64,000 nt of DNA from a virus, in the IMG/VR virus record IMGVR_UViG_3300010371_000028, positions 32,001 through 96,000 of that record, one strand, 5' to 3'. The notes under the pieces are model-generated. The model ran no database searches. It had not been told where the DNA came from and saw nothing but the letters and a program-made list of their open reading frames with translations. Both the position numbers and the translations under genes were made by a program. Shown one piece after another: positions 6,354 through 33,921 of the stretch (position 1 is its first letter; each line of letters begins with the position of its first letter).

Positions 6354-8065
6354 CAGGAAATCCCGACCGTGATCGCCAGCGCGCTCGTCACGTTCGACGA
6401 CGGCGTGATCGATACGGGCACTGCGATAAGCCCGGACCCGTTCGTGGCGAAACGCTTGGTTGCCGCCGCGTTCGGGCCGAGGTTCGCCACCGTGCCGTTC
6501 GCGTTGCTCGCCCGGTACAGCTTCGCCGGGGTCGTCGCGTTCTGCAGGATCCCGACCCAGTACAGGCCCGGCGTGACCGCCGTGGACGAGATCGTCGAAG
6601 TCTGGCCGCCAGTCCCGGCCACGTTCGTGTCGATCGACACGCTCGCCAGCACTGTACCGGCTGCGTTGATCAGCATGATGAAGTTCTCGCCGGCCGTCGG
6701 CGTCGCCGCCGCGGTCCCGACGCCCCAGTAGATCTTCGTGATCGACGTTGCGCGCTGCACGTAGACCGCGGCGAGATAGATGACCCCCGACGTCATCGTG
6801 TCGCCGCTCGACTGCGACGTGAAAGCCGGGTCGTGCGACCACGCCACCATCCCGGACTCGAACGGTGTCGGCAGCCCTACTGTGTGGCCCTGGAAGTCGA
6901 GGGCCGACAGCGACGACTGGAGGCCGTGGAACGCGGTCGAATACCCGGTCTGTCCGCCGACGCGTTCGATGACGTTCGCGCCGCGCAGGATGTTCGTGTT
7001 GGTGGCGTCGTCGATCCACGCCTGCGTGTTGCCGTACAACATGCCGCCGGAGACGACCACGTTCGAGGACGACGCGTTGACCGCGAACCCGTACTGCGGG
7101 CCCGGCACGCTCTGGCCGATGCCCGCGTTGGCCAGGCCGGTCAGCACCGTCGGCTGCGTGATCTCCACGGGGATGGTGGAGCCGGTGCACTGGATACCGG
7201 CGTAGGAGCCGCCGCCCGCGATTCCGTTCGCGCCGTCGCGCCGGTAGTACCCGCCGATGATACTCAACGGCGTGTCACCGGTCGCCGTGATCAGGATTCC
7301 GTTCCTGTTCGAGCCGTCCGTGGAGCAGCCGATCAACTGGCACCCGCCACCGCCCGTGTTGCTACCCGTCCACGTGCCGGAAATCTCGAACCCGTTCCAG
7401 TTCGAGTACTCCGACCGGCAACCAATGAAGACGCTGTTGGATGGCTGCGCGTTGAGCAGGAACCCCGACTTGCTCGACCCGATCGACTCCACGTCGATCC
7501 ACGTCGTGTCCGTCATCCCGCCGGCCGAATACCCGTAGCCGCCGCAGTTGTTGCCCAGGACGCGGGTGAACCGGTGCGAGTAGGAGAACCCGCTGCCGTT
7601 CGACACGGAACTGATGAAGTGGTTCGGCATCGACCGGATCTGCACGTCCTGCACGATCACGCCGTGCACGAACCCCTGCATCTGAAGACCGTCGGTCGTG
7701 CTGCCGGTGATGGCCGAGCCGTCCAGCGTGACGAAGAAAAGGCCCTGCTGGTTCGAGGCCACCGAGTAGCCGCCGGTTGCCTGGTCGACCATCAGGATCA
7801 TCGCCGGGTTCGACGACGAGAACGACGCGAGCGCTTTGATGCAGCAGGTCGTCGAGTCGATGTGCGAGGAATGCGAGCCCCACAGCGTCACCTGCGGCGG
7901 GATGTAGAGGGGGCTGGAGATTCCGTACGTGCCCGGCGGCAGATAGACCACACCCCCGAGAGGCGCGGCGTTCAGGGCGTTCTGGATCGGGAGGGTGTCG
8001 TCCGCGGTACCGTTGCCGACCGCGCCATAGTCCTGCGGCGTGATGAACCCGGCGAGATACGGCAT
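6353..8065 (-). CDS. Tail spike/depolymerase-like protein (pectate_lyase_3 N-terminus, right-handed beta-helix)
   Basis: ATG at 8065 in a TAATG overlap; PQDYGAVGNGTADDTLPIQNAL...VVYLPPGTY; beta-helix-like G/N/S repeats. Confidence 0.8.
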   Translation of the reverse strand: MPYLAGFITPQDYGAVGNGTADDTLPIQNALNAAPLGGVVYLPPGTYGISSPLYIPPQVTLWGSHSSHIDSTTCCIKALASFSSSNPAMILMVDQATGGYSVASNQQGLFFVTLDGSAITGSTTDGLQMQGFVHGVIVQDVQIRSMPNHFISSVSNGSGFSYSHRFTRVLGNNCGGYGYSAGGMTDTTWIDVESIGSSKSGFLLNAQPSNSVFIGCRSEYSNWNGFEISGTWTGSNTGGGGCQLIGCSTDGSNRNGILITATGDTPLSIIGGYYRRDGANGIAGGGSYAGIQCTGSTIPVEITQPTVLTGLANAGIGQSVPGPQYGFAVNASSSNVVVSGGMLYGNTQAWIDDATNTNILRGANVIERVGGQTGYSTAFHGLQSSLSALDFQGHTVGLPTPFESGMVAWSHDPAFTSQSSGDTMTSGVIYLAAVYVQRATSITKIYWGVGTAAATPTAGENFIMLINAAGTVLASVSIDTNVAGTGGQTSTISSTAVTPGLYWVGILQNATTPAKLYRASNANGTVANLGPNAAATKRFATNGSGLIAVPVSITPSSNVTSALAITVGIS

Positions 8066-8817
8066 TAGCCCACCGCCTTCAGCAGCCCGTTGGAGGCGTA
8101 GGTGAGGGTGCGCGAAGAGACGAGTGTCGTCCCGTCCTGTGCGATCGTGTACTCGGTGATTCCGGTCAGCGTCGTGCCGGACCACGTCAGGTTCGTGATG
8201 CGTGCCCCGTCGTCCGCGACGATCGACTGGATCTGCCCGGTGCCGCCCGTGCCGTACACCTGGTACATCAGCCCGTAGGACTGCGGCGTCCACGTGGACC
8301 CGTCGGGCGACGTGGCCGCGCCGGAAGCCTGGTTCGACTGTTGCCACACGTAGTACGCGCTCGGCGAGCCGGCGCCGGTCACCACCAGGCAGTAGATGCT
8401 CGACGGGCTCAGACCGCTCGCCAGCAGGGGTACCGGAAGCCAGAACGCGCCCGCGTACACGTACGGCTCCGCCAGTTGCGCCGAGGCGAGAGGCGCACCC
8501 ACTGGCAGACCAGACGCCGCCGCGAACAGCGACACCGTCAGCGGACTGATCGTCGCAGTGACGGCTGAGCCGCCGACCGTGGAGATCTGGAGCGAGACCT
8601 GGCCGATCGCTGTCTGCGCCGACCCGGTCGTGATGGTCTGCGACAGGTAGCCGGATTGCAGCGACTGGTAGACGGCGGCGCCGGTGGCCTGCTGAGTCTG
8701 GACCGCACCCGGGTTCGTGTAGATCCACTGCGCGTTGTGGCCGCCGAGGAACTGGGTGTTCAGCCCGGAGTCCCCGCGCTTCCCGACGGACGCGGCAAGC
8801 CACGCAGGGGTAGCCAT
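8065..8817 (-). CDS. Minor tail protein (paralog of 5631-6353)
   Basis: MATPAWLAASVG...YLSQTITT...DDGARIT...SSRTLTY; RBS GGGGG. Confidence 0.8.
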   Translation of the reverse strand: MATPAWLAASVGKRGDSGLNTQFLGGHNAQWIYTNPGAVQTQQATGAAVYQSLQSGYLSQTITTGSAQTAIGQVSLQISTVGGSAVTATISPLTVSLFAAASGLPVGAPLASAQLAEPYVYAGAFWLPVPLLASGLSPSSIYCLVVTGAGSPSAYYVWQQSNQASGAATSPDGSTWTPQSYGLMYQVYGTGGTGQIQSIVADDGARITNLTWSGTTLTGITEYTIAQDGTTLVSSRTLTYASNGLLKAVG

Positions 8818-8845
8818 CAGCACCCCCGGGATTCAGCGCGACAGG

Positions 8846-9482
8846 TCACGGCCCGAGCAGCAGCGAGATCTCGAGCAGCAGACTGTCGGTCGTCGGTACG
8901 GTCAGCGTCGGCGAGAAGCTCCAGTGGTCGATCATCGTGCCGCTGTTCGTCGTCGAGGTCGCGCCCGCGAACAGGCCCGCCTCCGCGACCGTCCACGTCG
9001 TGGCCGGCGACGTGAAGTAGAACAGCCAGGTGCAGTAGGCGGGGATCGAGGAGGATGCCGGGTTCGTGCCGCCCGCGCCGACCGTCTGCCGGCCGAGCTC
9101 CGCGAACAGGGAGGTATCCGACTTCACGGGCGTGCCCGTGCCGGAGCCGACCGCGCCGTAGAGAGGCGTGAGATACGTCGGGGACGTCACGCCGAGGTTC
9201 GCGGCCTGGTCCTCCAAGCCCGCCCACACCAGGGCCGCGGCGAGCGCGCCGTACCCGACGGTGCACATGACGTTCTCGCCCGCGCGGTGGCCGGCCACCG
9301 CGTCCGGGCGGCCGGCGATCCGGGCGAGCGCCTCGGCGGGGGCGAGCCCTTGACGCTTAGTCAACTCGAGGTAGTCCGCGAGATCCTTCGGGCTCAGATC
9401 CGGGCTGTCGCGGAGGACGGTCGCGGCAAGCCGGCCTCGTATCGGCAGCGCCTCGCGCACGGCCGGGCTTCCTACTGCCATG
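8846..9482 (-). CDS. Minor tail/baseplate protein
   Basis: ATG at 9482 with GGGGAG RBS; LFAELGRQ...VAEAGLF motif typical of tail-fibre anchor proteins. Confidence 0.7.
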
Positions 9483-9687
9483 CCCACGCTCCCCAGACGT
9501 CCTGACCCCAGCCCGGCGGGGTAGTGACGACAATCCCGGTGGCGGCGTCCGCCCACGCGGTCTGTTCGTCGGCCTCGGCGACGTATCCGAGGCCCGAGGT
9601 GGACGTGTCGGCACTGGAGGAGTTCTGCCCGTTGATTGAGTTGAGCAGATCGACCCAGGTCATCGGACGGTACAGGCCGGAGGTCAT
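9472..9687 (-). CDS. Small tail-associated protein
   Basis: RBS GAGGGG; 71 aa; Trp-rich C-terminus WGQDVWGAWAW. Confidence 0.65.
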   Translation of the reverse strand: MTSGLYRPMTWVDLLNSINGQNSSSADTSTSGLGYVAEADEQTAWADAATGIVVTTPPGWGQDVWGAWAWQ

Positions 9688-9699
9688 CGGCTACGCCCC

Positions 9700-11094
9700 T
9701 CATATCCGGACGGTGGTCAGCGCCATGGTGCGGTAGCCGCCGTCGGCGAACGTGACCGTGTTCGCAACGATCACGAAGGTGTCCATGAGCCCCCAGGTGC
9801 TGTTCTGCGGGTCGTAGAGCAGGCGGTTAGGGTCCGCCACTTCGCAGGACCAGCCGGCCCGCACCCACCCGATCCAGTCGGGGGACGTGTTGAAGGTGAA
9901 CCGCTGGACGACGAACGCGTACTCGGTGCGCATCTGCTGTGCGCGGGCGAGCGCCATCGGGACGGTCGTCAGGCTGCTGTCGGAGACGTACTGGCCGAAG
10001 ATCCCGCCGTTCGGCCCGGCGTACCGGGTGATCGACGCCTGGTCTGAGGCCTGCGCCACCACCGGGACGAGGTAGGTGTACCAGATCTGGATCTGCGTTC
10101 CGGCGGCCGGGACCGTGGCCGCGACCAGGAAGTACTGGCCGATGGAGTTCTGCTCGACGACCCACGGGCCCGTCACGCTCGCACCCTTGTCCGCGACGAC
10201 GACGGTCGTCGAGACGCCGCCGATGTGCAGCACAGGCTGGCCGGTGACGGTGTAACGCAGCGGCCACGCGGTCTGGGTGCCGTCCGCGAGCCACGTGTCG
10301 GTCGGCGGTTTCGACGTCGAGCCGTAGGAGATCGTCTGGTTCGCGCCCTGCACCAGGATCCGGTTCGACAGGGATGTGCCGTCCTGCTGGTTCGCGTTCT
10401 GGCTGTCGAGGAGGATGTGGCCCTCGGTCAGCGACCCTGCGGCGGTCGGGGCGGTGGTGAACGTCACGCCGCTGCTCAGAGCCTCGGTGCCGGGGAAGAA
10501 GTGCAGTTCGAGGTTCTCGTCGACATACCAGCCCCACGGTGTCGTGGAGCCAGCGAGGTTCGCCAGCTGCCGCCATGCCGTCGACAAGGGGTTGAAATTC
10601 AGGACGTAGGAGGCGAGTTGCGGGCCCGGTTCGACGTATCCGCCGTCCGCGACCGTCGCGGCGGTGATCCCGCAGTCGGCCTGCCGGACGAGGCTGACCA
10701 CGATCTGGTCGACGGTCCAGCCGTAGAAGATCCCGTGGACGTCCTTGTTGTCGGCGTACAGGGTGTAGTCGACGCAGGCGAGGTCCCATTCGTTCAACGT
10801 CTTGTTGACGATGACCGCCTGGGTCACGGAGTTCGCCACCCCGGCGAAAAGGCTCGTCGCGGCGGTGTTGTCGTACAGGGAGACCTGCGACATGCCGAGG
10901 ATCGCGATGGTGGGCGTGCCGGCGGCGGCGTAGTCCTCGACGAGCGGCAGGACGGCTGTGTCGCCCTGTCGGCCGAAGTTCTGCGTGACCGTCGTCTGCT
11001 GTTGGGCGCCGGCCCACGTGAGGTGCGTCGTGTAGTCGGTCGGCGAGCCGCCCGGCGGGGTGACGGTCAGGGTCAGGTGTGGGGCAGCGACCAC
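9700..11094 (-). CDS. Tail protein (distal tail/hub-like)
   Basis: 464 aa directly downstream of the tape measure; RBS GAGGTGA. Confidence 0.75.
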   Translation of the reverse strand: MVAAPHLTLTVTPPGGSPTDYTTHLTWAGAQQQTTVTQNFGRQGDTAVLPLVEDYAAAGTPTIAILGMSQVSLYDNTAATSLFAGVANSVTQAVIVNKTLNEWDLACVDYTLYADNKDVHGIFYGWTVDQIVVSLVRQADCGITAATVADGGYVEPGPQLASYVLNFNPLSTAWRQLANLAGSTTPWGWYVDENLELHFFPGTEALSSGVTFTTAPTAAGSLTEGHILLDSQNANQQDGTSLSNRILVQGANQTISYGSTSKPPTDTWLADGTQTAWPLRYTVTGQPVLHIGGVSTTVVVADKGASVTGPWVVEQNSIGQYFLVAATVPAAGTQIQIWYTYLVPVVAQASDQASITRYAGPNGGIFGQYVSDSSLTTVPMALARAQQMRTEYAFVVQRFTFNTSPDWIGWVRAGWSCEVADPNRLLYDPQNSTWGLMDTFVIVANTVTFADGGYRTMALTTVRI

Positions 11095-20777: not shown

Positions 20778-22583
20778 TCAGCTGTAGGTGCCGCCGTTGC
20801 CGACGGTGGTCTTCTGGATGCCCTGCAGCAGGCCGTTGTACTGGACCGCCGGGGAGAACAGTGCCCCGTACATGAACAGGCTGTAGCGGAAGGTCACGTC
20901 CACGACGGGCCACGAGATGGACAGGTAGTCCTGGACCATCACGTTCTCCCACACGTTGCCGACGTTCGTCCACGGCTGCGGGAGCTTGTAGGACAGCGCC
21001 ATGGCGGTGCCCTGCGGGATGTACGGGTGAACCCGGAGGTTCATCACCTTGCGCGTCACCGGGTTGGTGTACTCGCTGACGGCGACGCCGCCGCGCACAC
21101 CCCCGACCTCGCTCTGGTTGATGAAGAACCGGTAGTTGTTCGGGTTGGCCTGGTTGTTCTGGTTCGCGAGCGAACCGGCCAGCCGGGTCAGGTCGCCGCC
21201 CTCGGCCCACAGGTCGTCCGGGTCGGCGAAGATGCCGTTCGGGCCGTCCCACATGCCGGTGAGCATGTTGTTGATGGCGTTCTCCGACAGGATGTCGCCG
21301 ACGGAGTCGTTGACGTACGAGCCCTGGTAGCCGGACGGGTAGACGGCGGAACCGCCGGACGCCGAGTGGCCGGAGATCGTCGGGATGAAACCCTCGTAGT
21401 CCGTGGTCGCCGAGGTGCCGGTGTCGGCGGTCGGCGGGGTCGCAGTCCCGGTCGGCAGCGCGCCCTGCAGGGTGAAGCGGGTCGCGCCGACGGCCGAGGC
21501 CATCAGGTGGAAGCCGCTGTTGGCCGGGGCGGCCGTGCCGGTGCCGACGTAGACGTTGTAGGCGAGCGCGCCGTTGGACGGGCTGATCAGCACGTCGACC
21601 ACGTTGCCAGCCGACCAGGCGACGGACGCGCTGGAGGAGCCCGCGGTCTCGCCGTAGTAGTTCAGCGCCGTGACGATCACGTACACGTTCGTGGTGACGC
21701 CGGACAGCGCCGTCTCGCCGCTGCCCGCGGCGCGAGCCGTGAGACCGGGCGTTCCCGGGGCCGACAAAGCGATCGAAGTCGCGCCGATCATGGCGCGCTC
21801 CTCGAGGACCATCATCTCCTGCAGCAGCACCAGCGACGCGAGCCCCGCGGCGTCGTCGAACCCCTGACCGGCGAACTGCGCCAGCCAGGAAACCGCCTCG
21901 GTCAGGCCGAAGAACTTGTACGGGACATTGACGTCCACGGCGGTCTGCGACCCGGAGGCGGGCAGCTGGTTGGGCCAGTTGTTGCCCGCGATACCGCCGC
22001 CGGCAGGCAGCTCCGGGATCGAGATGCGGTTGGAGGTCACGCCGAGCTGGCCCGGCAGCGCGCCGGAGATCGAGGTCATGACCTTCGCCCGGTGCACGGT
22101 GCCCTGGCCGGGCACACGCGGGATCAGGTTCCGCAGCGGCGAGTAGACCGGGTAGATCAGCTGCGTCGGCGCCGTCAGGTCGAACGGCACCAGGCCGGTC
22201 GCGTTCGGCGAAGTCAGCGTGATGGACTTGCCCAGTTGCGCGGACAGCTGGTCGTTCAGCTGCGACACGAACTGGTTCATCGCGTAGACCTGCGGGCTGT
22301 TCTGCATCGCCATCGACAGGGCGTTGCCGAACGCCGGCGACAGCGACTTCAGGACGGTCGCCGGGTCGGACAGGCCCTTGCGGATGGCCGACTTGAGCAG
22401 GTGCTCGGCGGCGTAGGCCTGGTCGTCCTCGCTGGCGCCGACACGGCGGCCCTTGACGAGGGCGGGGATGCGGCGGGAGATCGCGTCTCCGTAGCCGCCG
22501 TTGCGAACCTCGCCGAGAACCGACTTCGCAATGACGTCGGTGTTCGCCTCGCTCGAGATCTGCTCGATGGTTGCGCGCGTTAT
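20778..22583 (-). CDS. Major capsid protein
   Basis: Large ORF after the scaffold/protease gene; GLVPFDL...IYPVYSPLRNLIPR motif. The frame is open 90 codons upstream of ATG 22313 to an ATA 6 nt after AAAGGAG. Confidence 0.85.
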   Translation of the reverse strand: MTRATIEQISSEANTDVIAKSVLGEVRNGGYGDAISRRIPALVKGRRVGASEDDQAYAAEHLLKSAIRKGLSDPATVLKSLSPAFGNALSMAMQNSPQVYAMNQFVSQLNDQLSAQLGKSITLTSPNATGLVPFDLTAPTQLIYPVYSPLRNLIPRVPGQGTVHRAKVMTSISGALPGQLGVTSNRISIPELPAGGGIAGNNWPNQLPASGSQTAVDVNVPYKFFGLTEAVSWLAQFAGQGFDDAAGLASLVLLQEMMVLEERAMIGATSIALSAPGTPGLTARAAGSGETALSGVTTNVYVIVTALNYYGETAGSSSASVAWSAGNVVDVLISPSNGALAYNVYVGTGTAAPANSGFHLMASAVGATRFTLQGALPTGTATPPTADTGTSATTDYEGFIPTISGHSASGGSAVYPSGYQGSYVNDSVGDILSENAINNMLTGMWDGPNGIFADPDDLWAEGGDLTRLAGSLANQNNQANPNNYRFFINQSEVGGVRGGVAVSEYTNPVTRKVMNLRVHPYIPQGTAMALSYKLPQPWTNVGNVWENVMVQDYLSISWPVVDVTFRYSLFMYGALFSPAVQYNGLLQGIQKTTVGNGGTYS

Positions 22584-22614
22584 ATGCCACTCCTTTCCGG
22601 GGTGGTCAGGTGCT

Positions 22615-24963
22615 CTAGCTGAGCAGCTTGACCGCCAGCTCGCGGCCGGCAGTCTTCATCAGTTCATCGAGGGCGGGAAGGGCGATCCCCTGGTCGGGGT
22701 CCTTCGCCTGCTTGACGAGCCTCACGAGCCGCTCCGTACGCGCAGCCTCGTCCCCGCCCGCGGGGACCTCCTGGCCGTCGTGCTTCGCCTTGGTGAGACT
22801 GGCCCCGGACCGCGGCGCCATCTGCGCCGGGTCGGGGGACGATTCGAACTCGGCGATCCTCGCCTCGAGGTCGCCGATGGTCTTGGTGAGGTCACCGAAC
22901 TGGTCGGCGACGAGGTCCCGGATCGTGGACTTCAACATCTCCGGGTCGATGAGGGGCCCCGCGGTGGCAGTGGCGGCCGGCGCGGCGGCTTCCTGCGCGG
23001 GGTTCGCGGCGTTGGCCATCTCGGCCTCCTTCGTGACGTGCGGGGTGACGAGGGACGCGGCGTGCGCGGCGTCGACCGGGATCGGCGTGCTCGTCGCGTT
23101 GGTCTTGCCGAACTGCTGCGGGACGGGCGCGCTCGCGGCGGGAGAAACGCCCATCGCGCCGTGCGCGGACTCGCCCATGGCGCACACGCCCGGGTGCTGG
23201 CCGGCGATGTAGTCGTGCATCGCGGCGAGGACGCCCTTGGCCTGCTCGCGGGCCGCGGTCGTGTAGTAGGTGCGCGCGTCCTTGGCCGCCGACCCGGGGG
23301 ACGCGGCTTCGCGCCCGGCCGTGATCAGAGGGCGCTTGAAGTCGTCGGGGTTCGGAACGTGGCTGGCGAGGGGGATGCGCGGCTTCTGGCCGGAGCCCGC
23401 CGTCTGGTTGGCGCGCCCGGCGGACACATACGGCCGTTCGAACTGGCCCGGGGTGATGCTGCCGGGCTTCACGTGCACGTCCGGGTAGTAGTCGGCGAAC
23501 GCCTTGCGGAGATCCGTCATGGCTTCGGCCATCAGGCCCGAGTCGGCGGCCTTCAGGACCGCGGCGAGGCTGTAGGCGTGCGAGAGGCTGGGCAGCGCCA
23601 TGGCCGCGCTGGCGGAGTCGCCGGCGGTCAACGCCGCGGAGATGGAGGCTGCGAACACGTCGGGGTCGGCGATGTGCGCGAGGCCCTTCGATACGGCGGG
23701 GTGAGCGGCGATCACGTCGTCGGCGCGGTATGCGGCGCAGGTGGCGTCGTGCAGCCGGGCCAGGTGGTAGGCGGCCGGTCCCGCAGCGCTCTTGGTGGCG
23801 TGCGCGGCCGGCGAGTCGGTCGCCTCGTCCTTGTCCTGGGCCGCAGCCGCCGTCTGCACGTCCTCGCGCACGTTCTCGAGCGCCTGGGCGACCATCTGGT
23901 CGGCCGGGTGAGTGGTCGCGTCGGGGTCCTTGGCCTGGGCGGCGAGCGCGGCGTCAGCGTCCTGCTCAAGCCGGTCGATGGCGCGTTCGACGTCCGTGTC
24001 GGCGGTAGACGGCTTGGCTGCCTTCTTCATGGCGGTGCCGCACTGGGCGCAGAACTTGTCGCTCTTGCGCATCGGGGCGTCGCATTCCGAGCAGTTGCCG
24101 GCCTTCTGCGCCTGCGCCTTCTCCGCCGAGTCGTCGTCGGAGTCGCCCTCGTCCTCGGCGTCGTCGGGCTCGCTGCCGTCGTCGCCCTCGAACGGCTTGG
24201 CCGCGCCCTTGAACGGCGGCTTGCCCTTCTCAATCTCGTCGCCGGCCTTGGCCGCAGCCGGCTCGCCTGTGGGCTCGGCGTCCTTCTTCGCGTCGTCGTC
24301 CTTCACGTCTTCGCCCTTCCACGAGTCGGGGATCTTCGCTTCGAATTCGGGCCCCTTGCGGCGGGCGATAGCCATGGCACGCTGCTTGATCTTCTCGGGG
24401 TCGCCCTTGATGTCGTGGTTCAGGTTCGGGGCGATGTCCGCGACGTCTTTCGGGGTGACGATCGGGAATGCGCGGTGCTCCGGGTCGGCGAAGTCCTCAG
24501 TCGGGATCTTGTCGCGGTCCACTCCGCCGCCGACGTTCCGATCGAAGTCCCGCTTGGCGACCTCGCGGACCGAAGGCTCTGCGGTGAGTTGCCGCTTGAG
24601 CGCGTTCAGCTTCGCCAGGTCGCGCGGGGAGAACGACACGGACACGTCCGCCGGGAGCTCCACCGTCACCGTCTCGGCCTCGATCGCCTTCGTGGCGCCC
24701 TGCGCGGGCGCTGGCGCGTCCTGGCGGTCCGGTTCGGTCATGACGGCGGCAATATGCCCCTCCTGGGTTTCTGCGGCGGCCACGTTGGCCGCCGGATTGA
24801 TCTCGGCAACGTCAAGGGCCTTCATCATGAGAATGGGGAATCCGTTTGCCGGCGTACCGACACCATCCACGCGAGTCGGGTCGAACTTCTCCAACTCGGT
24901 GATCTTCTCCAGGTCATCGCCGGCCTCCCCCTGGTTTCCGACCCCTGGAAACGCTGCGGCCAT
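22615..24963 (-). CDS. Scaffold/prohead-protease-associated multidomain protein
   Basis: AGGAGG RBS before ATG 24963; RVDGVGTPANGFPILMMK motif, DFADPEHRAFPI segment, double Zn ribbon CSEC...CAQC, acidic linkers. Confidence 0.75.
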   Translation of the reverse strand: MAAAFPGVGNQGEAGDDLEKITELEKFDPTRVDGVGTPANGFPILMMKALDVAEINPAANVAAAETQEGHIAAVMTEPDRQDAPAPAQGATKAIEAETVTVELPADVSVSFSPRDLAKLNALKRQLTAEPSVREVAKRDFDRNVGGGVDRDKIPTEDFADPEHRAFPIVTPKDVADIAPNLNHDIKGDPEKIKQRAMAIARRKGPEFEAKIPDSWKGEDVKDDDAKKDAEPTGEPAAAKAGDEIEKGKPPFKGAAKPFEGDDGSEPDDAEDEGDSDDDSAEKAQAQKAGNCSECDAPMRKSDKFCAQCGTAMKKAAKPSTADTDVERAIDRLEQDADAALAAQAKDPDATTHPADQMVAQALENVREDVQTAAAAQDKDEATDSPAAHATKSAAGPAAYHLARLHDATCAAYRADDVIAAHPAVSKGLAHIADPDVFAASISAALTAGDSASAAMALPSLSHAYSLAAVLKAADSGLMAEAMTDLRKAFADYYPDVHVKPGSITPGQFERPYVSAGRANQTAGSGQKPRIPLASHVPNPDDFKRPLITAGREAASPGSAAKDARTYYTTAAREQAKGVLAAMHDYIAGQHPGVCAMGESAHGAMGVSPAASAPVPQQFGKTNATSTPIPVDAAHAASLVTPHVTKEAEMANAANPAQEAAAPAATATAGPLIDPEMLKSTIRDLVADQFGDLTKTIGDLEARIAEFESSPDPAQMAPRSGASLTKAKHDGQEVPAGGDEAARTERLVRLVKQAKDPDQGIALPALDELMKTAGRELAVKLLS

Positions 24964-25020
24964 CGTGAACCTCCTGGCGATCATTACCCTGAAACAGGGC
25001 GTGGTGGAGTTCGAATTCGG

Positions 25021-25031: not shown

Positions 25032-26516
25032 GTGGCTACCAATGCAGAGAAATCGGCGTTAGCCGAACGGGCTTTCCTGGCACGCCTCGCCGAACTTGGC
25101 GTCATGCCGGACTACGAAAAGTGGGAGGGCACGGGGCGCCCCCACAAGGCAATCTGCCGTGTGGGCCACGAGTGCTATCCGTACCCCTCCGCGATCCGCA
25201 AAGGAATCGGGCCGTGCAGAGCCTGCGCCGGGCAGGACCCGCGCATGGCAGAGGCGGCGTTCCGGAACCGCCTCGCCGAACTGGGAGCCGCCCCCGTCTA
25301 CGACACCTGGCTCGGTGCGCGCAAAGGCCATGCCGTGATCTGCAAGAACGGGCACGCGTGCCATCCGACGCCCGATGCGATCCGCGCAGGAAACGGTCCC
25401 TGCAACACCTGCGCCGGCACGAACAGTGCGGCGGCCGAACGGAACTACAAGGTCCGGCTCGCTGAACTCGGAGCCGCGCCCGCCTGGACCGCCTGGATCG
25501 GCGCCGCGAAGCCTCACAAGGTCATGTGCCCGCAAGGGCACGAATGCTCCCCGATCCCTTCGGGCGTCATGGGAGGCAAAGGCTTATGTCGGACATGCGC
25601 CCGGCTCGACCCGCTGGTAGCCGAAGTCGCATTCCGACGGCGCCTCGACGAACTCGGCGTCGTCGCCGAATGGGCAACGTGGCGCGGCAATCACGCCAAG
25701 TACCAGGCAACCTGCGCTGCCGGGCACGAGTGCTGGCCGCGCCCTGACCACTTGCGGCGAGGCGACGGGCCCTGCCGCGCCTGTGGGAAGTGCGACCCCG
25801 TCGAGGCCGAGGCCCAGACCCGGCGTCGGCTGGAAGCATCCGGCTTCACGCCGGCTTGGGAACAGTGGGTCGGTGCAGGCCGCCCCCACAAAGTAGCCTG
25901 CCCGGCCGGACACGAGTTCCCCATGTACCCGTCCGCGCTGGCGCGGAGAGGGTGTACGTGCCCTCATTGCGCCGGCACGACTCCGGAAGCGATCGAGAGC
26001 GTCTTTAGGGATGCCGTCGTGAGGCAGGGCGCCACCCCAGCGTGGGGCAGTTGGCTAGGGAGCAGCCAGGGCCACAGGGTCATCTGCAAGAACGGGCATG
26101 TGGTCTACCCCAGGCCGAACGGTGTCGGGCAGGGGCGTGGCGTCTGCCGGTTCTGCAAGGGCCGGGCTTGGGACGTCTTCTACGTCGTGGTCAACGACGT
26201 GAAGCGCGAACTGAAATTCGGGATCACGAGCGGCGACCCCCGGGGGCGCCTTGCCGTCCACAGGAACCGCGGCTTCTCGCATGTGGCCCTGATCGCCGCG
26301 ACTCCGCTGGCCCTGAAGATCGAAACCGCGACGAAGAGAGCCCTCCGCGCCGCCGGACACCGGCCCGCCCACGGCAGGGAGTACTTCGGCCTTGACGCCC
26401 TGGAAGAAGTCTTACAGGTGGCGATCAGCTACGGACTCGAAGCCGGGATCAGTCGCGAAGACTGGCCAGGGCGTCCTGGGACGGCTCTCGCCTTACGGCC
26501 GAGCCTTGCATGCTGA
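25032..26516 (+). CDS. Six-repeat Zn-ribbon protein with C-terminal GIY-YIG-like domain (free-standing endonuclease-like)
   Basis: Six ~62-aa repeats (LAELG..P...W.G...H.V.C..GH...P.P......G.C..C), then FYVVV...LKFGITSGDPRGRLAVH...LKIE. Confidence 0.7.
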   Translation: MATNAEKSALAERAFLARLAELGVMPDYEKWEGTGRPHKAICRVGHECYPYPSAIRKGIGPCRACAGQDPRMAEAAFRNRLAELGAAPVYDTWLGARKGHAVICKNGHACHPTPDAIRAGNGPCNTCAGTNSAAAERNYKVRLAELGAAPAWTAWIGAAKPHKVMCPQGHECSPIPSGVMGGKGLCRTCARLDPLVAEVAFRRRLDELGVVAEWATWRGNHAKYQATCAAGHECWPRPDHLRRGDGPCRACGKCDPVEAEAQTRRRLEASGFTPAWEQWVGAGRPHKVACPAGHEFPMYPSALARRGCTCPHCAGTTPEAIESVFRDAVVRQGATPAWGSWLGSSQGHRVICKNGHVVYPRPNGVGQGRGVCRFCKGRAWDVFYVVVNDVKRELKFGITSGDPRGRLAVHRNRGFSHVALIAATPLALKIETATKRALRAAGHRPAHGREYFGLDALEEVLQVAISYGLEAGISREDWPGRPGTALALRPSLAC

Positions 26517-26973
26517 CCCCGCGGATCTTGCCGCTCTTGATGAGTTCCCAGGTCTCCGGGGTCCACTGGATCCCCAGGAGCCAGTCCCCGGACTTGATCG
26601 TCTGCGTTGTGCCGTCGGCTGCGGTCAAGTGCCAGTCGGGGCCGCGATAGACATACGATTCCACAACGTTGCCGCTGCCATCCGTGCCCTGCTGATGCCA
26701 CAGCCCCACCGAGCGCGACTTCAGCATGTAGGACCACGCCGCATCCTCGACCGCCTGCGGGCCTGCGAAGTCGCGGAAGCCGTCCGCGGCCACGCCGGCA
26801 TCCGGCTTGTTCGCTGGATACGCGACGTGCAGGGTGAAGCGGCGATCAGGCTGCGACTTCACGACGCGGGCGGCGATGCCCATGCCGTCCCATACGTCAG
26901 GCTGCGCGTCCTTGACGACTTCGCCGCCGTCGATGACCACGCGCTCGGTGCCGTCTTCGATAGTGACGCGCAG
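26449..26973 (-). CDS. XkdF-like putative serine protease (head maturation)
   Basis: RFTLHVAYPANKPD...DFAGPQAVEDAAW...VGLWH...VVESY...GDWLLG...IKSGKIRGVSMQG; start CTG 26973 or GTG 26940. Confidence 0.8.
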   Translation of the reverse strand: MRVTIEDGTERVVIDGGEVVKDAQPDVWDGMGIAARVVKSQPDRRFTLHVAYPANKPDAGVAADGFRDFAGPQAVEDAAWSYMLKSRSVGLWHQQGTDGSGNVVESYVYRGPDWHLTAADGTTQTIKSGDWLLGIQWTPETWELIKSGKIRGVSMQGSAVRREPSQDALASLRD

Positions 26974-26982
26974 ATGCAGCTC

Positions 26983-27603
26983 CTACCTGGTTTCGAGCCG
27001 GGTCAGCAGTTCGGTCCAGTCCGCGAAGGCGCGGACGTTCGGGTACTGCCGCCAGGATTGAGGGGTCCACGGGCGTATCGGCGTCCACACGTCGACACCG
27101 GGCCGGGCGATGGTGAGCCACTTCGCGGGGTCATCGTCGATCAGGACGGCCGGATTCATGGGCCCTCGGGCGGCGAGCGCCATCGTTTTCGATGTGGGAC
27201 CGTCGAGGATCTGCCCGTCGCGCGGCACCGCGCTGGCGTCGAGCCACTTTTCAGTGGCGGGCGCGGTGGACGCCGGGCGGTCCGAGGCGATGAGGACCCG
27301 ATGTCCGGAAGCGCGCACGGTTCGCAGCGCCGCGATGGCTTCGCGGTCCGGGGCGAGGTTGAGGATCCACGGGTCGCGTGCGGATTGGGCGAGCAGCCAT
27401 CTCTTCTGGTCTGGCTCGAACAGGTTCACGTACGGGTAGGCGCGCATGTCCGAGACAAGATGCGAGGAGCCGAAGCGCGCGTTGACTGCGGTGCAGCCGG
27501 CTTCGACCTCCTGCGCGAGTACGTTGTCGATGTCGCACACCACGAGCGGTCGTGTCGCCTCGGCCGCGAAAACGGCACCGAGATCCACGCGGCCTCCCGT
27601 CAA
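26983..27603 (-). CDS. HAD-superfamily 5'(3')-nucleotidase-like protein
   Basis: CDIDNVL (motif I), IASDR (II), SK (III), LIDDDP (IV). Confidence 0.75.
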   Translation of the reverse strand: MTGGRVDLGAVFAAEATRPLVVCDIDNVLAQEVEAGCTAVNARFGSSHLVSDMRAYPYVNLFEPDQKRWLLAQSARDPWILNLAPDREAIAALRTVRASGHRVLIASDRPASTAPATEKWLDASAVPRDGQILDGPTSKTMALAARGPMNPAVLIDDDPAKWLTIARPGVDVWTPIRPWTPQSWRQYPNVRAFADWTELLTRLETR

Positions 27604-28076
27604 CGGCGGTCGTAGTCGTGCAGGTGCAGCGAGCGCTTGTGCACGTGCGGCCGATAGCCCAGGGTCCGCAGTAGCTGGGACAGGCGGGTATCGAGCCGGT
27701 GCCAGTCCTTGGCCGGGGACCCGTCGCCATCTACATCACCGAGCCGGCCCATGAGACCGGGATGGCGAGTTTTGAGCCTGCCCGCCAGTTTCACGCAGCC
27801 GAGCCCGTCCTGGAGCCACGTGTGCTCGATCCGGTACGGGCTTGTACACCACGGCCGGGCGCAGGCCCCCATGGCGGCGGTAACACCGTCGGCCGGAAGC
27901 ATGTCGTGCTCGATGAGGATCAGGTCACCTGGGCGGTCCCATTCGGCGGCGAGGAGGCGCCAGTAGGCTTCGACGTCTGCGTCGAGTTGGCAGATTCTCG
28001 CACCCTCGGCCTGCGCCCACCTGCGGGTCGCTTCGTGCAGCATGCCGGGTGCTGCCGCAACGATGGCCACCGTCAC
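27600..28076 (-). CDS. Short GT-A-like glycosyltransferase
   Basis: GDLILIEHDML (DxD-like), GLGCVKL, D..LS..L...GY..HVH...H pattern. Confidence 0.6.
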   Translation of the reverse strand: MTVAIVAAAPGMLHEATRRWAQAEGARICQLDADVEAYWRLLAAEWDRPGDLILIEHDMLPADGVTAAMGACARPWCTSPYRIEHTWLQDGLGCVKLAGRLKTRHPGLMGRLGDVDGDGSPAKDWHRLDTRLSQLLRTLGYRPHVHKRSLHLHDYDRR

Positions 28077-31000
28077 ACCATGTCCGATGCGCCGAGCCGG
28101 TACCTGACCACCTCGCTGTCGCCGCGATGGACGGACAGGTGCGTGAAGGTCACGGGCAGCGCCGGCAGCGGATCCGGCAGGCTATCACCAGCATCGACGT
28201 AGGCCCTGGTGACGTGCGGATGCCAATCCGCGTGCTCGCTGGCCGAGAGGTCCGCTAGGTTCGCTCGTAGTTGCTCGGCGCCGGGGAGAGTGACTCCGGC
28301 CCATACGACGGTCTTGCCGTCGCTGGAGTCGGACGGTTCGAAGGTGCCGAGTCCCGAGACGATTCCCGTCAGCGGTCCCGGCGCGGACGCGGCGGCTCGT
28401 GCGGCGCGTGCGCACGCGAGCGCGAACGCGTCGTCGTCGACGTCAGGCCCGAGATATGCGACGGTCACATGGAAGTCGGCGACTCCGCCGGGGACCGGCT
28501 CGATCAGCGCTTCAGGCAGATCCAGCGAGATCATTCCCGATTGCGCGTTAAGACTGTATCCGCGCGCTGCTTTCACCGTGTCCGAGGAGTCCTCGGCGGG
28601 GACGAAACGGCAGGAGCAGCGGCAGTTCGGGCCGCCGAGGCACACGTTTCCTCCGAACCCGCCGTCCCCGGGCCAGCCGGGCAGCGTCTTGAGTGTGAAC
28701 GTCTTGCCCGCCCGGTCGACGCAGGGCCCGCAGTGGTCCTTCGCGTCCCCGAGTTCCCACACGATCGTGTAGGTGGGGTGCGCGTCCATCACGGTTCGGC
28801 CGTAAGCCTGGTTGTACGCCTTGTACAGGGACGCGGCGTACTGGGCGAGACGCGCCCCGATCGCGGCGAGCGACAGTCCCGCGACGACGTCCTGGATCAG
28901 CCCCATGAGGTAGCCGCGCTGCCGTTCGGCTTGCTCGCCGGCATCGTCGTCGAGGTCGTCCTCGTCGATGGGCGGAGTGTCCTCGTAGTCTCCGGACGCG
29001 TCCGTCGTGCCGGCTGCCATCGCCTTCCGGTACCCGGCGGCCATCGCCCGCACTCCGCCGTCGACGGCGTGCGGAAGGGACAGGCCCGCGTTCTTGTGGT
29101 CGCGCACCAGTTGTCCGAGGTGCGCCGCCACGGCTGCGGCAGCCGCTTCCAGGTGTCGTTCGCGCCGTTCCTGCCGCTGCTTGGCGTCGGTGGCGTCCTT
29201 CGCGGCCTTCACTGCGGCGGGCACGCCCTGCGGGAGCATCCGAGCGGCAGCTTCCACGGCTTCGACGGGAAGCGCTTCGGGTCGGAACCGGGCAAGGTCG
29301 CGGCCCTTGCGCAGGTAGCGGCCGAGGATCTCAAGCTCCGCCTTCTGTGCGGCTTGTTCGGCGGCCTGCGCCTCCGCGTCTGCTGCGCCTGCGCTGCCGG
29401 GGGTGTCCGGCAGTCTTTGCGCCGCCTCGTGCGCCGGTGTCGTCAGCGAGTCGTCCGAGACCTGCGCCGACGCGTCCGGTACGGCGCCGGGCACGCCCGG
29501 GGCCTGGGGCTGTTCGCTGGCGATCGCCGAGAGCGGTACCGGGCCGGTGGCGGTGAACACGAGCGGCACCGAGGTCTCGGGCAGCCCGAACGGCGTCCAC
29601 CCGAGTTCGCCGCGGAACTCGTCGATCGTCTGCACGCCGCCCTGGGTCAACTGCACGCCCTGGTCGATCAGCGACTGCCGGTTCTTGCCGCGGTCCGTCA
29701 GGCCCCAGGACCATTCCATGTCCTTCTGCCCGAAGACTTCCCGGATCACGAAGTCGAAGATGACGGTCTTGAGTGCCGCGCACACCGGTTCAACGCGGGT
29801 CTGCGACCCCTTGTCCGAGTTGATCTGGGAGAGTTCCTTGGATTCGGACGGCGACTGCACTGCGGAGACCCGCGGGGTGACGCCGAGGTCCATCGGCGTC
29901 AGGCCGAACGGCATCGCCACCTGGGAGATGATCCACTCATCGAACTGGTCGGCGAGCGCGACCGGCTTCTGCGCCTCGGCTTTCGACCCGGGCGGCAGCA
30001 CCACGATCCGGTGCTTCGCCCCGATGTCCCCGGCCATCGCGTTCAGCGCATCCTGCAACTGCCGGATCTGCTGCGGGGTGGAGATGTCCGGGCCCGGCGT
30101 AATGAACTGCCCGGGAATGGAGCCGTCGGTGAAGTAGTCGTTCTGGAACTGCTGACGCGCCAGACCGATCGAGATCGGGAGGAGCGCCTTCTCCACGAGC
30201 GACTGCCCGTACGGGGTGAACGCGCGCGGCGTCTCCCTCATGTAGATCAGCTGGTCGGCGCGGAAGTCCGCGACGGGCTCGCTGAGTTCTTCGAGGTCGT
30301 CCCCGTTGATGACCGACAGGAGGTCGACGCGGGGTACGCCCCACACGAACTGCTGGTAGCCCACGGCGGACGGCCTCGGCGTCTCGCCGAGCGTCGAGAT
30401 CAGCGGCCTGACGGTGGACCCGTCGATGAGGTTGAGCGCGGCGAGGTCGGAGCCGAACGGGCCGGCGCCCTTCTTGCGCGGCGGCACCAGGTGGATCGCG
30501 ACGGCGTCGAGGACGAACCGGTCTTCGAGCAGCGCGCTCAGCCACGCCCCGAGGGTCGGATACTTGGCGCGGTCGGAGTCGGGGTGGCTGAAGAAGTCGA
30601 GGACGATCGCGCGCCGCTTCTCCCAGTCGGCCCGCAGACTCTCGTCCCCGGCCATGGCGTGCTCGGCCTCAGGCGTGGGAATCACGTCGGGTTCGAGACC
30701 GATGATCTCCGCCTTGCGCTTGTCGACGCAGGAGCGGGCAACCGAGTACATGTCGGCGACGGCGCGCAGCGTCGCGAACGGCGCGAGCTTGAGTCCTTCG
30801 CTGCCCGGCTGCCCGACGGGGAGGTTGTAGCCGGGCTCGTACTGGTATCGGCGGACGTCGGGCCGGTGGGTGTCCTCGCGCGGCGGGTCGATCGGCATGG
30901 CCGTGACTGGCGCCATGGGGCCGAACGCGCCGTTGAGGAACACGGGGGCGGGCCGGGGCAGCGGCGAATACGGCACGGAGGCGCTGTAGCCCTGCCCGTA

Positions 31001-31105
31001 TGACGCGACCAGCGGCGAGAGTCCGCCCTGGCCGGTGCTGCCGCTACTGCCGGCGTTGTTCGCTGCGGCGAGTACGGCTGCCGCGATCGCGTTCCCTTTC
31101 GGCAC
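28073..31105 (-). CDS. Portal protein fused to a MuF-like minor head domain and a C-terminal 2H phosphoesterase
   Basis: Portal core (LVEKALLPI...QQFQNDYFTDGSIPG...QTIDEFRGELG); MuF-like WELGDAKDHCGPC...GPNCRC; two HxT motifs FHVTVAY and HPHVTRAY; likely start GTG 31105. Confidence 0.88.
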   Translation of the reverse strand: MPKGNAIAAAVLAAANNAGSSGSTGQGGLSPLVASYGQGYSASVPYSPLPRPAPVFLNGAFGPMAPVTAMPIDPPREDTHRPDVRRYQYEPGYNLPVGQPGSEGLKLAPFATLRAVADMYSVARSCVDKRKAEIIGLEPDVIPTPEAEHAMAGDESLRADWEKRRAIVLDFFSHPDSDRAKYPTLGAWLSALLEDRFVLDAVAIHLVPPRKKGAGPFGSDLAALNLIDGSTVRPLISTLGETPRPSAVGYQQFVWGVPRVDLLSVINGDDLEELSEPVADFRADQLIYMRETPRAFTPYGQSLVEKALLPISIGLARQQFQNDYFTDGSIPGQFITPGPDISTPQQIRQLQDALNAMAGDIGAKHRIVVLPPGSKAEAQKPVALADQFDEWIISQVAMPFGLTPMDLGVTPRVSAVQSPSESKELSQINSDKGSQTRVEPVCAALKTVIFDFVIREVFGQKDMEWSWGLTDRGKNRQSLIDQGVQLTQGGVQTIDEFRGELGWTPFGLPETSVPLVFTATGPVPLSAIASEQPQAPGVPGAVPDASAQVSDDSLTTPAHEAAQRLPDTPGSAGAADAEAQAAEQAAQKAELEILGRYLRKGRDLARFRPEALPVEAVEAAARMLPQGVPAAVKAAKDATDAKQRQERRERHLEAAAAAVAAHLGQLVRDHKNAGLSLPHAVDGGVRAMAAGYRKAMAAGTTDASGDYEDTPPIDEDDLDDDAGEQAERQRGYLMGLIQDVVAGLSLAAIGARLAQYAASLYKAYNQAYGRTVMDAHPTYTIVWELGDAKDHCGPCVDRAGKTFTLKTLPGWPGDGGFGGNVCLGGPNCRCSCRFVPAEDSSDTVKAARGYSLNAQSGMISLDLPEALIEPVPGGVADFHVTVAYLGPDVDDDAFALACARAARAAASAPGPLTGIVSGLGTFEPSDSSDGKTVVWAGVTLPGAEQLRANLADLSASEHADWHPHVTRAYVDAGDSLPDPLPALPVTFTHLSVHRGDSEVVRYRLGASDMV

Positions 31106-31168
31106 GGCCACCCCCGCCTGTGTGACGTGAACGGCACAAGGATCTGGCGATCGTCGGCTTGCTGCCGG

Positions 31169-31877: not shown

Positions 31878-32090
31878 CTACGGTTGTTGGCCGACGTTTG
31901 TCTGCTGCTTGAGCCTGATGCGCTTGTCCAGATCGTTGCGCATCCGCTTGGCGGCCCGCTTGTCCCGTAGGCCGAGGGTGGCCGCGATCGCGCTCCACGG
32001 GATGCCGCGCTGCCAGGCGATTTCGATCACAGCGAGTTTCTGTACGTCCGGGTCGTTCGTGTCGATCGGGCGCAGTTCGGTCTCGGTCAC
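31878..32090 (-). CDS. Small HTH protein
   Basis: GTGA overlap; RGIPWSAIAATLGLRDKRAAK. Confidence 0.65.
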   Translation of the reverse strand: MTETELRPIDTNDPDVQKLAVIEIAWQRGIPWSAIAATLGLRDKRAAKRMRNDLDKRIRLKQQTNVGQQP

Positions 32091-32442: not shown

Positions 32443-33921
32443 TCAGTAGGCCGCCGTCCACGGGTTCTCCGGTTCAGCTTCGTCGCCCTTTAGCTGTTCC
32501 TTCTTGGGCGAGTACACGTCCAGCCACGACATGCCGGCGCCTTCGACCTTGCAGGCGTGCAGTGCGTAGACCATCGCGTCGAGCCGGTCCGGGCTTTCGT
32601 CCGAGCCGGGCTCGAACTGGGCCATCTGCTCTTCGAGCTTCTCGAACCGGCCGACGAGGTGGCAACGCTGCTGTTCGTAGAGTGCCGCGATCGGTTCGGC
32701 CCTGAGGTACTTGCCGCGTGTCGCATGCACGGTCTTGTACCCGATGTCGGGCGTCACGCCTTTGATCAGGGTGCCGACGTAGTCGCCGCCGTTGTTGACC
32801 TCGGCGACGACGAAGTTCGCGCGGTAGTCCTCGTATGCGGCGCACACGCGCCTGGCCACTTCGGCGGGGTGCCCGCGGAAGGAGAGGTCGGCGAGGACGT
32901 ACCCGTGCCCGTCGGTGCCTTTGCCCGCGACGACGATGCCGGTCTCGTCGGATTCGTCGCTCGAGGTGACCGCCGGGTCGACGGCGACGACGACGTACAC
33001 GAGCGGGGGGTGCTCGCCGACACGGCAGGCGTCGAGGGTCTCCCACGACCACAGTGCGCCCTCGGGGTCGTCGAGCAGGTCGCCTTCGAGTTCTTGGCGG
33101 GCGAGGCGCGAGGTGAGTCCGCCGGTGACGTCCTGGAGGAACTCGCTGGAGAGGTTGCCGGCGTTCTCGGTGGTTTTGAGGAGCCGGTTGTCGACCTTGG
33201 GGTCGTCGAGGAGCCGGCGCACGAGGTGCTTGGACTTGCGGGCGCTCTTGGGGGTGCCGGTCGCGATGATGAACGCGCCCTCGATGCGGGTGGCCATGCG
33301 GATCGACTCGTCCCACGCGGTTTCCCACTGTTCCCATAGGCCGATCTCGTCGGCGAGGACGCCGCGGAGGTTTTTGCCCTGGAGTCGGATCGCGCCGTTC
33401 TCGGCGCCAGTCGCGTAGAGGCGTCCGCCTGTGTGGAGGGTGAGTTCGCCGAGGGACCGGTTCCAGCTGGCGACGAGTTTTGACTTGCCGGCCTCGACTT
33501 CGACTTTGCTGGTGCCGAGGGCGGCGAGGAGTCCGGATTCGGGGGATTCGATGGCCATGGAGCGGGCGTCGGCGAAGGTGGGTGAGACGAGGCCCCATTC
33601 GCCTTGCCCGGATTCGGCGAAGCGTTCGGCGAAGGCGTGGATCGCGGACCAGCTTTTGCCGGCGCCGCGTCCGCCTCGGTAGTAGGTGATGCGGGTGCCT
33701 GGTTTGGGGGCGCGTTGCGCGTATCTTGCGTGCCGGCCGCGTCCGTTGTGGGGGCTGCCGTCGCAGGCGGGGTCTCCGCACCAGCGCCACGCCTGCATGA
33801 TGGCGCGGGACGCTGCGAGCCGGGCCTCGGCGAGGCGGCGGCGGCTGTCAGAGAGCCACTGGAGGGTCTCCGGCGACGCCGTCACCTCGATGCGCCGCGG
33901 CTTCTTCGGCGAGGCGGGCAA
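32443..33921 (-). CDS. terL: Terminase large subunit
   Basis: Walker A GGRGAGKS, Walker B VLADEIG, nuclease motifs VAVDPAV and SPDRLDAMVYA. Confidence 0.95.
   Translation of the reverse strand: MPASPKKPRRIEVTASPETLQWLSDSRRRLAEARLAASRAIMQAWRWCGDPACDGSPHNGRGRHARYAQRAPKPGTRITYYRGGRGAGKSWSAIHAFAERFAESGQGEWGLVSPTFADARSMAIESPESGLLAALGTSKVEVEAGKSKLVASWNRSLGELTLHTGGRLYATGAENGAIRLQGKNLRGVLADEIGLWEQWETAWDESIRMATRIEGAFIIATGTPKSARKSKHLVRRLLDDPKVDNRLLKTTENAGNLSSEFLQDVTGGLTSRLARQELEGDLLDDPEGALWSWETLDACRVGEHPPLVYVVVAVDPAVTSSDESDETGIVVAGKGTDGHGYVLADLSFRGHPAEVARRVCAAYEDYRANFVVAEVNNGGDYVGTLIKGVTPDIGYKTVHATRGKYLRAEPIAALYEQQRCHLVGRFEKLEEQMAQFEPGSDESPDRLDAMVYALHACKVEGAGMSWLDVYSPKKEQLKGDEAEPENPWTAAY

Follow-up and report, generated by a model that had tools for sequence, protein, structure and literature searches.

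A phage portal protein joined to a MuF-like region and a LigT-like 2H phosphoesterase domain: a further member of a computationally described effector class

We examined a 64,000-nucleotide stretch of DNA (positions 32,001 to 96,000; hereafter the window) of the IMG/VR virus record IMGVR_UViG_3300010371_000028, a linear sequence of 132,777 bp with a CheckV completeness estimate of 89%, and found in it a single open reading frame (ORF) whose product, P0001, joins a phage portal protein, a MuF-like region and a C-terminal 2H phosphoesterase domain in one chain of 1012 amino acids. P0001 is a real feature and a fresh member of a class that has been described computationally, and the idea that such proteins are packaged has been in print since 2017. 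On balance we consider it somewhat probable that P0001 is the sole portal of its phage, extended into a polyvalent head-packaged effector with an intact 2H phosphodiesterase that would act for the phage around genome entry. A sequence-only reading of this DNA had proposed the same anatomy (portal core, Ala/Pro linker, MuF-like Cys motif and a C-terminal pair of HxT motifs), which is borne out by Pfam and PHROG matches and by the presence of both the Cys and the HxT motifs. Conservation was assessed in two alignments, of 26 homologues of the 2H domain (A1) and of 44 multidomain proteins (A3). The ORF and its parts, in window coordinates and with the supporting evidence in brackets, are as follows.

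28073..31111, minus strand: whole ORF, portal / MuF-like / 2H fusion, 1012 aa plus stop (translation, Pfam, PHROG)
29522..30934, minus strand: portal core, residues ~60-530 (PF04860, phrog_2662)
29360..29521, minus strand: low-complexity Ala/Pro/Gln-rich linker, residues ~531-584 (translation)
28577..29359, minus strand: MuF/SPP1-gp7-like region, residues 585-845, a helical part followed by a small Cys-rich beta module (AF2, BFVD, hhalign)
28616..28732, minus strand: Cys cluster C794-x2-C797 ... C824 ... C830-x-C832, a MuF C-terminal 'HPxCRC'-type motif
28088..28540, minus strand: 2H domain, residues ~858-1008, LigT/ThpR-like fold (PF13563, AF2 pLDDT 93, Foldseek and VIA matches)
28463..28471, minus strand: first catalytic motif, H881-V-T883 (FHVTVAYLG; invariant in A1 and A3)
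28208..28216, minus strand: second catalytic motif, H966-V-T968 (HPHVTRAY; H and T invariant in A1; in A3, H invariant and T at least 90%)

The portal assignment rests on profile matches and context. Pfam Phage_portal (PF04860) matches residues 280-501 with an E-value of 6.8e-10 and 39.1 bits, exactly at the cut-off, and the PHROG portal family phrog_2662 matches residues 83-673 with an E-value of 3e-41; the gene is present in a single copy with a large terminase nearby, as expected of a portal of the HK97-SPP1 type. Since the ORF gives the only PF04860 match across the 133-kb record, P0001 must be the working portal. Identity to close relatives drops at the linker that follows (residues 531-584), which may be a flexible tether or a cleavage zone.

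For the C-terminal domain, PF13563 (2_5_RNA_ligase2) matches residues 881-992 with an E-value of 1.6e-7 (1.1e-8 for the domain alone), and two 2H-containing PHROGs annotated as 'RNA ligase', phrog_14859 and phrog_2659, match residues 873-996. The domain has both features of the 2H superfamily, namely two H-x-T/S motifs and a pseudo-symmetric alpha+beta fold. G888, D893, S958, Y971, H995 and R996 are likewise invariant in A1, and the invariance of the H-x-T pairs together with H995-R996 across all 26 homologues argues for selection for activity. In fold comparisons the model of this domain scored 15.4 with Deinococcus drCPDase, 15.0 with Thermus TT0787, 14.1-14.2 with E. coli LigT/ThpR (root mean square deviation 2.5 A over 144 residues, 22-25% identity), 13-13.8 with Usb1, 11.9 with plant CPDase, 11.5 with AKAP18, 11.1-11.5 with rotavirus VP3, 10.6 with mouse hepatitis virus (MHV) ns2, 10.4 with Acb1 and 10.0-10.1 with the penguinpox cGAMP phosphodiesterase, and Foldseek gave the same order. 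The best BFVD matches were actinophage proteins of 180-1100 aa annotated as 'RNA ligase', 'putative structural protein' or 'capsid morphogenesis protein', with Acb1 at ranks 47-48. A sequence search of the PDB with the domain returned nothing relevant, the best hits being chance matches with E-values of ~1.

The sequence-only reading had tied this domain to Acb1 and to the destruction of immune messengers. That link was over-read: the fold is LigT-like, with LigT/ThpR structurally nearer than Acb1, and PF23474 (Acb1) gave no match at E<=1 with either the isolated domain or the whole of P0001, although the HMMER filters may mask very weak matches. The ThpR equivalog model TIGR02258 scored 21.8 bits against a cut-off of 65.7 (E 1.4e-4). 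The candidate assignments as ThpR orthologue and as Acb1 family member were both rejected on these profile scores. Because it falls far under the ThpR equivalog cut-off and lacks an Acb1 Pfam match, the P0001 domain represents a phage clade of its own within the 2H superfamily, with LigT as the closest neighbour. It differs from the ThpR/LigT enzymes of known structure (LigT 5ldi/4qak, drCPDase 5h7e, TT0787 1iuh) in the extra invariant motifs SGMISLDLP, DLSASEH and VHRG, and in lying within a predicted virion protein, whereas those are free cytoplasmic enzymes.

Between linker and 2H domain lies a region that we accept as a divergent MuF/gp7-like domain on the grounds of its modelled fold and its context. 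The Pfam MuF family PF04233 gave no match to P0001 at E<=1 in scans of the whole protein and of the record, and was matched by 4 of 43 family members at E<=0.01, with a best E-value of 3.7e-6 (28.1 bits, against a cut-off of 29.6). The Cys motifs DHC794GPC797 and GGPNC830RC832 are near-invariant across the family, and two relatives connect them to the Pfam family. In P0073, whose portal is 40% and whose 2H domain is 68% identical to those of P0001, PF04233 scores above its cut-off at residues 803-907, and the GHPSCRC motif inside that match aligns with GGPNCRC of P0001. In P0087, a near-threshold PF04233 match (28.1 bits) lies inside the region matched by residues 721-845 of P0001 with an E-value of 3e-30. 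Alignment of the P0001-type and P0073-type domains by hhalign gave a probability of 56% and an E-value of 1e-4 over 55 columns spanning the Cys motifs. The AF2 model of residues 585-850 has a pLDDT of 93.4; its BFVD matches (TM 0.4-0.54) comprise proteins annotated as 'phage head morphogenesis domain', 'minor capsid protein' and 'capsid morphogenesis protein', and toxin-bearing proteins (Zeta toxin domain, CDI toxin-like), while the fold search found no solved structures resembling it. The region thus resembles MuF and minor capsid proteins in fold and is encoded immediately after a portal.

Searching 5.8 billion proteins with P0001 gave 361 homologues. When its four segments were mapped onto the best 120 of these, the portal core was present in every one, the helical segment (residues 585-720) was present in 105, the Cys-rich segment (residues 721-845) in 97 and the 2H domain in 35. 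The cargo position in these 120 is occupied by 2H (35), NUDIX (~30) or ParB (11) domains, and also by ADP-ribosyltransferase, Zeta and Hint domains; the Hint domains, as in P0016, are self-cleaving. The order portal, MuF, 2H is kept in P0002 (85% identity) and P0003 (77%), whereas in P0004 to P0013 the CRC motif and the 2H domain are separated by an insert that contains NUDIX (~445 aa in P0004). The MuF-2H junction at residues 845-856 is an insertion hot spot. Across 34 proteins with both portal and 2H domains the identities of the two parts correlate weakly (Spearman 0.41): P0003 is 97% identical to P0001 in the portal and 60% in the 2H domain, P0062 44% and 72%, and identity between P0001 and P0003 falls from ~95% to ~60% across residues 640-720, the breakpoint zone. 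A split version is found on the contig of P0133 (ENA ERZ26871208), where consecutive genes encode a portal of 718 aa, a protein of 591 aa and a 2H protein of 188 aa. On the same contig the 188-aa gene is followed by one for a 92-aa protein with a weak Pfam match to Tad2-like proteins (anti-Thoeris sponge).

When 1.84 billion representatives were searched with a profile of the 2H domain, 2,843 relatives emerged, of which 164 had E-values of 1e-30 or less; the orders portal-MuF-2H, portal-2H-MuF and 2H-MuF are all represented. Among 139 new 2H representatives, 18 are of 300 aa or less and 7 have tandem 2H copies; the top-scoring relatives, P0156-P0162, are proteins of 1275-2372 aa with two tandem copies, and P0156 also has a NUDIX domain. 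We scanned for partner domains the 44 new representatives that had no portal or MuF signal: the commonest partner was an Arr-type ADP-ribosyltransferase (12), followed by NUDIX (10), GNAT (4) and ADPrib_exo_Tox (3), with single cases of Zeta toxin, ParB, GDSL lipase, ART, PARP and ART-PolyVal. Other close 2H homologues are encoded on their own in head modules, adjacent to genes for ADP-ribosyltransferases. A tblastn search of isolated phages gave remote portal matches only (<=31% identity), no 2H match at E 1e-5 and no close cultured relative, and a scan of species-representative genomes with the 2H motif pattern gave no confirmed relatives. With a constant packaging module and alternative cargo that recombines, the P0001 family behaves, as judged from sequence comparison, as a polymorphic or polyvalent effector system in which cargo is decoupled from portal ancestry.

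Evidence that such cargo is packaged comes from Gordonia phage GMA2, in which Orf10 (883 aa; 7981-10632) directly follows the portal gene Orf9 (phrog_776, E 2e-118). Orf10 is the prototype of phrog_2659, the PHROG that the P0001 2H domain also matches (E 1.6e-6). Like P0001 it is a large protein of the portal locus with a C-terminal 2H domain (HLT at 756, HIT at 836); unlike P0001 it is encoded separately from the portal and has an ADP-ribosyltransferase-like stretch before the 2H domain. It also has a weak match to Acb1 in Pfam (PF23474, E 7.9e-4). Its annotation reads 'putative structural protein' only. Mass spectrometry of purified GMA2 virions identified Orf10 with 29.4% coverage (Dyson et al. 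2015, PMC4524720 Table S5). We placed ten of the Table S5 peptides on Orf10, between residues 142 and 846, and one of them (825-846) covers the second HxT motif, so that a homologous 2H domain is physically present in the virions of a cultured actinophage. By analogy these data support the packaging of such cargo in general; ejection, and P0001 itself, lie outside their reach. The packaged-effector logic of the sequence-only reading therefore stands at the level of the family, through the swappable cargo, the Hint-bearing relatives and the GMA2 virion data; its novelty does not.

Portals are dodecamers whose C-terminus faces the capsid interior, and the model MuF protein, gp7 of SPP1, binds the portal non-covalently as a minor component of the head. 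In the reading that we favour, the portal core of P0001 would form the DNA-entry vertex, and the chain beyond it would run through a flexible linker into the MuF/gp7-like domain and end in the 2H domain. Because the portal is dodecameric with its C-terminus inward, the MuF and 2H parts would lie inside the head, and each virion would enclose the 2H enzyme in at most 12 copies if unprocessed. Since a portal subunit remains in the capsid, delivery would need proteolytic release; a head protease would probably free the 2H part, the linker at residues 531-584 being a plausible target and an XkdF-type protease being encoded nearby. The 2H domain would most likely use its two histidines, without a metal, to act on a phosphodiester of the 2',3'-cyclic, 2'-5' or 3'-5' kind, whether this belongs to a nucleotide, to an oligonucleotide or to the end of an RNA, and it would do so for the phage at, or shortly after, genome entry. 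The LigT-like geometry of the model favours 2',3'-cyclic phosphodiesters as substrate, and the association with ADP-ribosyltransferase and NUDIX domains, seen in sequence comparisons, points to an NAD/ADP-ribose conflict network. Among candidate substrates we give the largest share of our expectation to a defence or alarm nucleotide, a slightly smaller one to RNA 2',3'-cyclic-phosphate ends or RNase action, about half as much to an ADP-ribose-derived cyclic phosphate, and the rest to others. The full sequence of events, in which a head protease cuts the 2H domain free and it travels with the DNA to destroy immune messengers (a cyclic oligonucleotide or other phosphodiester, or RNA-derived precursors) before phage transcription, we consider unlikely as a whole.

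Several observations weigh against the favoured reading. The covalent fusion would keep the domain in the capsid unless it is cut, in contrast to the non-covalently bound gp7 of SPP1. Packaging is not essential to the role of the domain, since some of its close homologues stand alone as genes of early or replication regions. The GMA2 homologue is remote (~23% identity in the 2H domain) and is unfused to its portal, and the MuF assignment of P0001 depends on weak profile evidence and fold matches. Fold similarity of the 2H domain does not identify its substrate, and we infer substrate, cleavage and ejection for P0001 from its family and homologues.

These points bear on the alternatives. It is doubtful, to our mind, that the domain is an Acb1-like nuclease that clears messengers of the cyclic oligonucleotide-based antiphage signalling system (CBASS), of type III CRISPR or of other cyclic-oligonucleotide systems on entry, before phage expression. 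Such a role has been proposed in print (PMC5512222, PMC9503650); NUDIX, also a nucleotide-cleaving domain, is present in 18 of the 35 2H-bearing relatives, and the weak Tad2-like gene follows the free 2H gene of the split relative. However, ThpR/LigT outscores Acb1 by ~5 Z units, and Acb1, which is 15% identical to the domain over 125 residues, stands far down the BFVD matches; the Acb1 profile gives no match, and the motif context H-x-T-x-x-Y-L-G is LigT-like. The commonest fusion partners of the domain are moreover ADP-ribosyltransferases, not further anti-signalling modules. Were the 2H domain instead to work late in the producing cell, the portal fusion serving to co-express or co-localise it with the packaging machinery, which is known to set off abortive-infection sensors, packaging would be a by-product. 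This we judge distinctly improbable, although the portal tether speaks against ejection, the free-standing homologues in early or replication regions or in head modules show use inside the infected cell, and the same alternative has been raised for head-linked ADP-ribosyltransferases (Iyer et al. 2022, PMC9503650 section 3.7.1). What tells against it is that portal or MuF has repeatedly been chosen as the carrier, in several domain orders, that self-cleaving Hint modules occupy the same position in relatives, and that the 2H peptide in GMA2 virions points to packaging as a selected trait.

A role in RNA end-healing, in which the 2H domain would open 2',3'-cyclic phosphate ends left by host defence RNases (acting on anticodons or elsewhere), a neighbouring HAD protein would remove the phosphate and the RNA would be rejoined, fits the nearest folds, which are RNA 2',3'-cyclic phosphodiesterases, the weak TIGR02258 match and the HAD gene two genes downstream that matches a 'polynucleotide kinase' PHROG. 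We nevertheless hold it to be very unlikely. The 133-kb record has no RtcB and no PF09414 RNA ligase; PF09511 RNA ligase is also absent, a weak negative given that control genomes gave no match either. A 2'-phosphate product is not known to be a substrate of RtcB, which counts against this role as well. The HAD protein is at least as similar to NT5C nucleotidases as to Pnkp, and this class of 2H domains is never associated with RNA ligases according to Iyer et al. 2017 (PMC5512222). As to whether the fusion merely joins separate portal, MuF and 2H genes through an assembly or frameshift error, the split three-gene version on the P0133 contig is the one point in its favour. We regard the chance of this as negligible: dozens of independent contigs of varied origin keep the continuous architecture at identities of 40-85%, which clears the frameshift concern raised in the earlier reading, and the frame is open throughout with uniform G+C content at third codon positions (GC3).

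The published record places P0001 among the polyvalent effectors of Iyer and colleagues. Fusions of 2H to MuF or portal domains were reported in Iyer et al. 2017 (PMC5512222, 2H section, Fig 5B), where the domain was proposed either to act as a Usb1-like RNase or to break down products of defence systems, namely 2'-5' oligoadenylate or cyclic nucleotides. Iyer et al. 2022 (PMC9503650, section 3.4.5) took the fusions to suggest packaging in the head and injection, countering SMODS, cyclic-mononucleotide and CRISPR signalling, and described NudE-like NUDIX domains fused to MuF, portal and capsid protease. Because this prediction had already been published, the sequence-only interpretation of P0001 is a rediscovery. 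As in those effectors, the 2H domain of P0001 sits on MuF and portal in a terminase-portal head module without an RNA ligase partner, and cargo in its family likewise alternates among NUDIX, ADP-ribosyltransferase, ParB and Zeta. P0001 differs in its specific order of portal, MuF-like region and 2H in the sole portal of a ~133-kb high-GC phage, in a MuF domain too divergent for Pfam, and in a MuF-2H junction that is the shortest in the clade.

MuF polymorphic toxins were defined by Jamet et al. 2017 (PMC5576092), and they share with P0001 a MuF domain followed by variable enzymatic C-termini exchanged by recombination, in a gene that adjoins the portal (in P0001 the MuF domain is inside it). 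They lie downstream of portal genes and are far commoner in Firmicutes and their temperate phages, and 2H or NUDIX cargo goes unmentioned in the searched text of the article. P0001 differs in that no immunity gene is evident and that it carries a phosphodiesterase in place of a classical toxin. Acb1 (phage FBB1, 7t26, PF23474) resembles the 2H part of P0001 as a small phage-encoded domain with a 2H fold and two catalytic histidines, and would be its functional analogue if the sequence-only reading were right. A literature search found no experimental papers on a portal- or MuF-linked 2H domain.

Most known anti-defence proteins need to be expressed first, whereas an enzyme preloaded in the capsid would precede the build-up of host signalling. 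If the idea is true, it would give the first demonstration of an anti-signalling enzyme delivered by a virion, and the cargo of the portal family would amount to a catalogue of pre-loaded counter-defences. Related actinophages with one portal-MuF chassis and 2H, NUDIX, ADP-ribosyltransferase, ParB or Zeta cargo form a natural test series, and the question can be approached in culturable relatives such as GMA2 or the Arthrobacter phages Sonali and Mufasa8. The present analysis adds the exchange of 2H independently of the portal, the LigT-like fold, and the homologous 2H active-site peptide within the published GMA2 proteomics.

The P0001 ORF is a single unbroken minus-strand frame (28073-31111, stop at 28075-28073), and its GC3 of 0.87 is like that of the other genes of this sequence of 69% G+C. 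It starts with GTG at 31111. An alternative in-frame GTG at 31105, two residues shorter, lies 6-8 nt past GGCGGGGG, a Shine-Dalgarno-like stretch better placed for it than for 31111, and may be the true start. The minus-strand head operon runs from the large terminase through two small genes, the portal fusion, a 158-aa protein and a HAD phosphatase to an XkdF-type protease. The neighbouring features of the window are listed below.

32443..33921, minus strand: large terminase, encoded upstream of the portal fusion within its operon (matches to Terminase_6N/6C and to terminase PHROGs)
27600..28076, minus strand: 158-aa protein without a family match, between the portal fusion and the HAD gene
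26983..27603, minus strand: HAD-type phosphatase bearing the DIDNV motif, second gene downstream of the portal fusion (weak NT5C-like match, 'polynucleotide kinase' PHROG)
26449..26940, minus strand: XkdF-type serine protease, Peptidase_S78_2 (PF14550, E 5.8e-15)
25032..26516, plus strand: 494-aa gene antisense to the head operon in which it lies, flanked by the protease gene and the head gene that comes next (PHROG 'endonuclease' / 'HNH endonuclease', E ~1e-20; no Pfam match)
22615..24984, minus strand: 789-aa head-module protein, downstream (weak zinc-ribbon match)
20778..22655, minus strand: 625-aa head-module protein, downstream (phrog_13692, unknown function, E 1e-68)
41100..41171, minus strand: tRNA-Gly (CCC), anticodon at position 32 (ARAGORN)

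A PF04233 profile search detected no separate MuF gene in the 133-kb record, and when the window was searched by tblastn with all homologues, no match fell outside the ORF, so that no cargo modules were found elsewhere in the window. NUDIX, Tad2-like, Arr-type ADP-ribosyltransferase and ADPrib_exo_Tox domains are also absent from the 133-kb record. From its family, the XkdF-type protease may be the enzyme that processes head proteins, and the 494-aa antisense gene is probably, judging by its PHROG matches, a homing-type endonuclease insertion. The HAD phosphatase and the 158-aa gene lie between the portal fusion and the head protease, an unusual position for such genes. The layout is similar in the 78%-identical relative P0004 (GCA_037025005.1, contig JBAIIG010000247.1), with a portal fusion, small genes, an S78_2 protease and a Zn-ribbon protein; on that contig the protease is followed by a syntenic 893-aa DZR protein.

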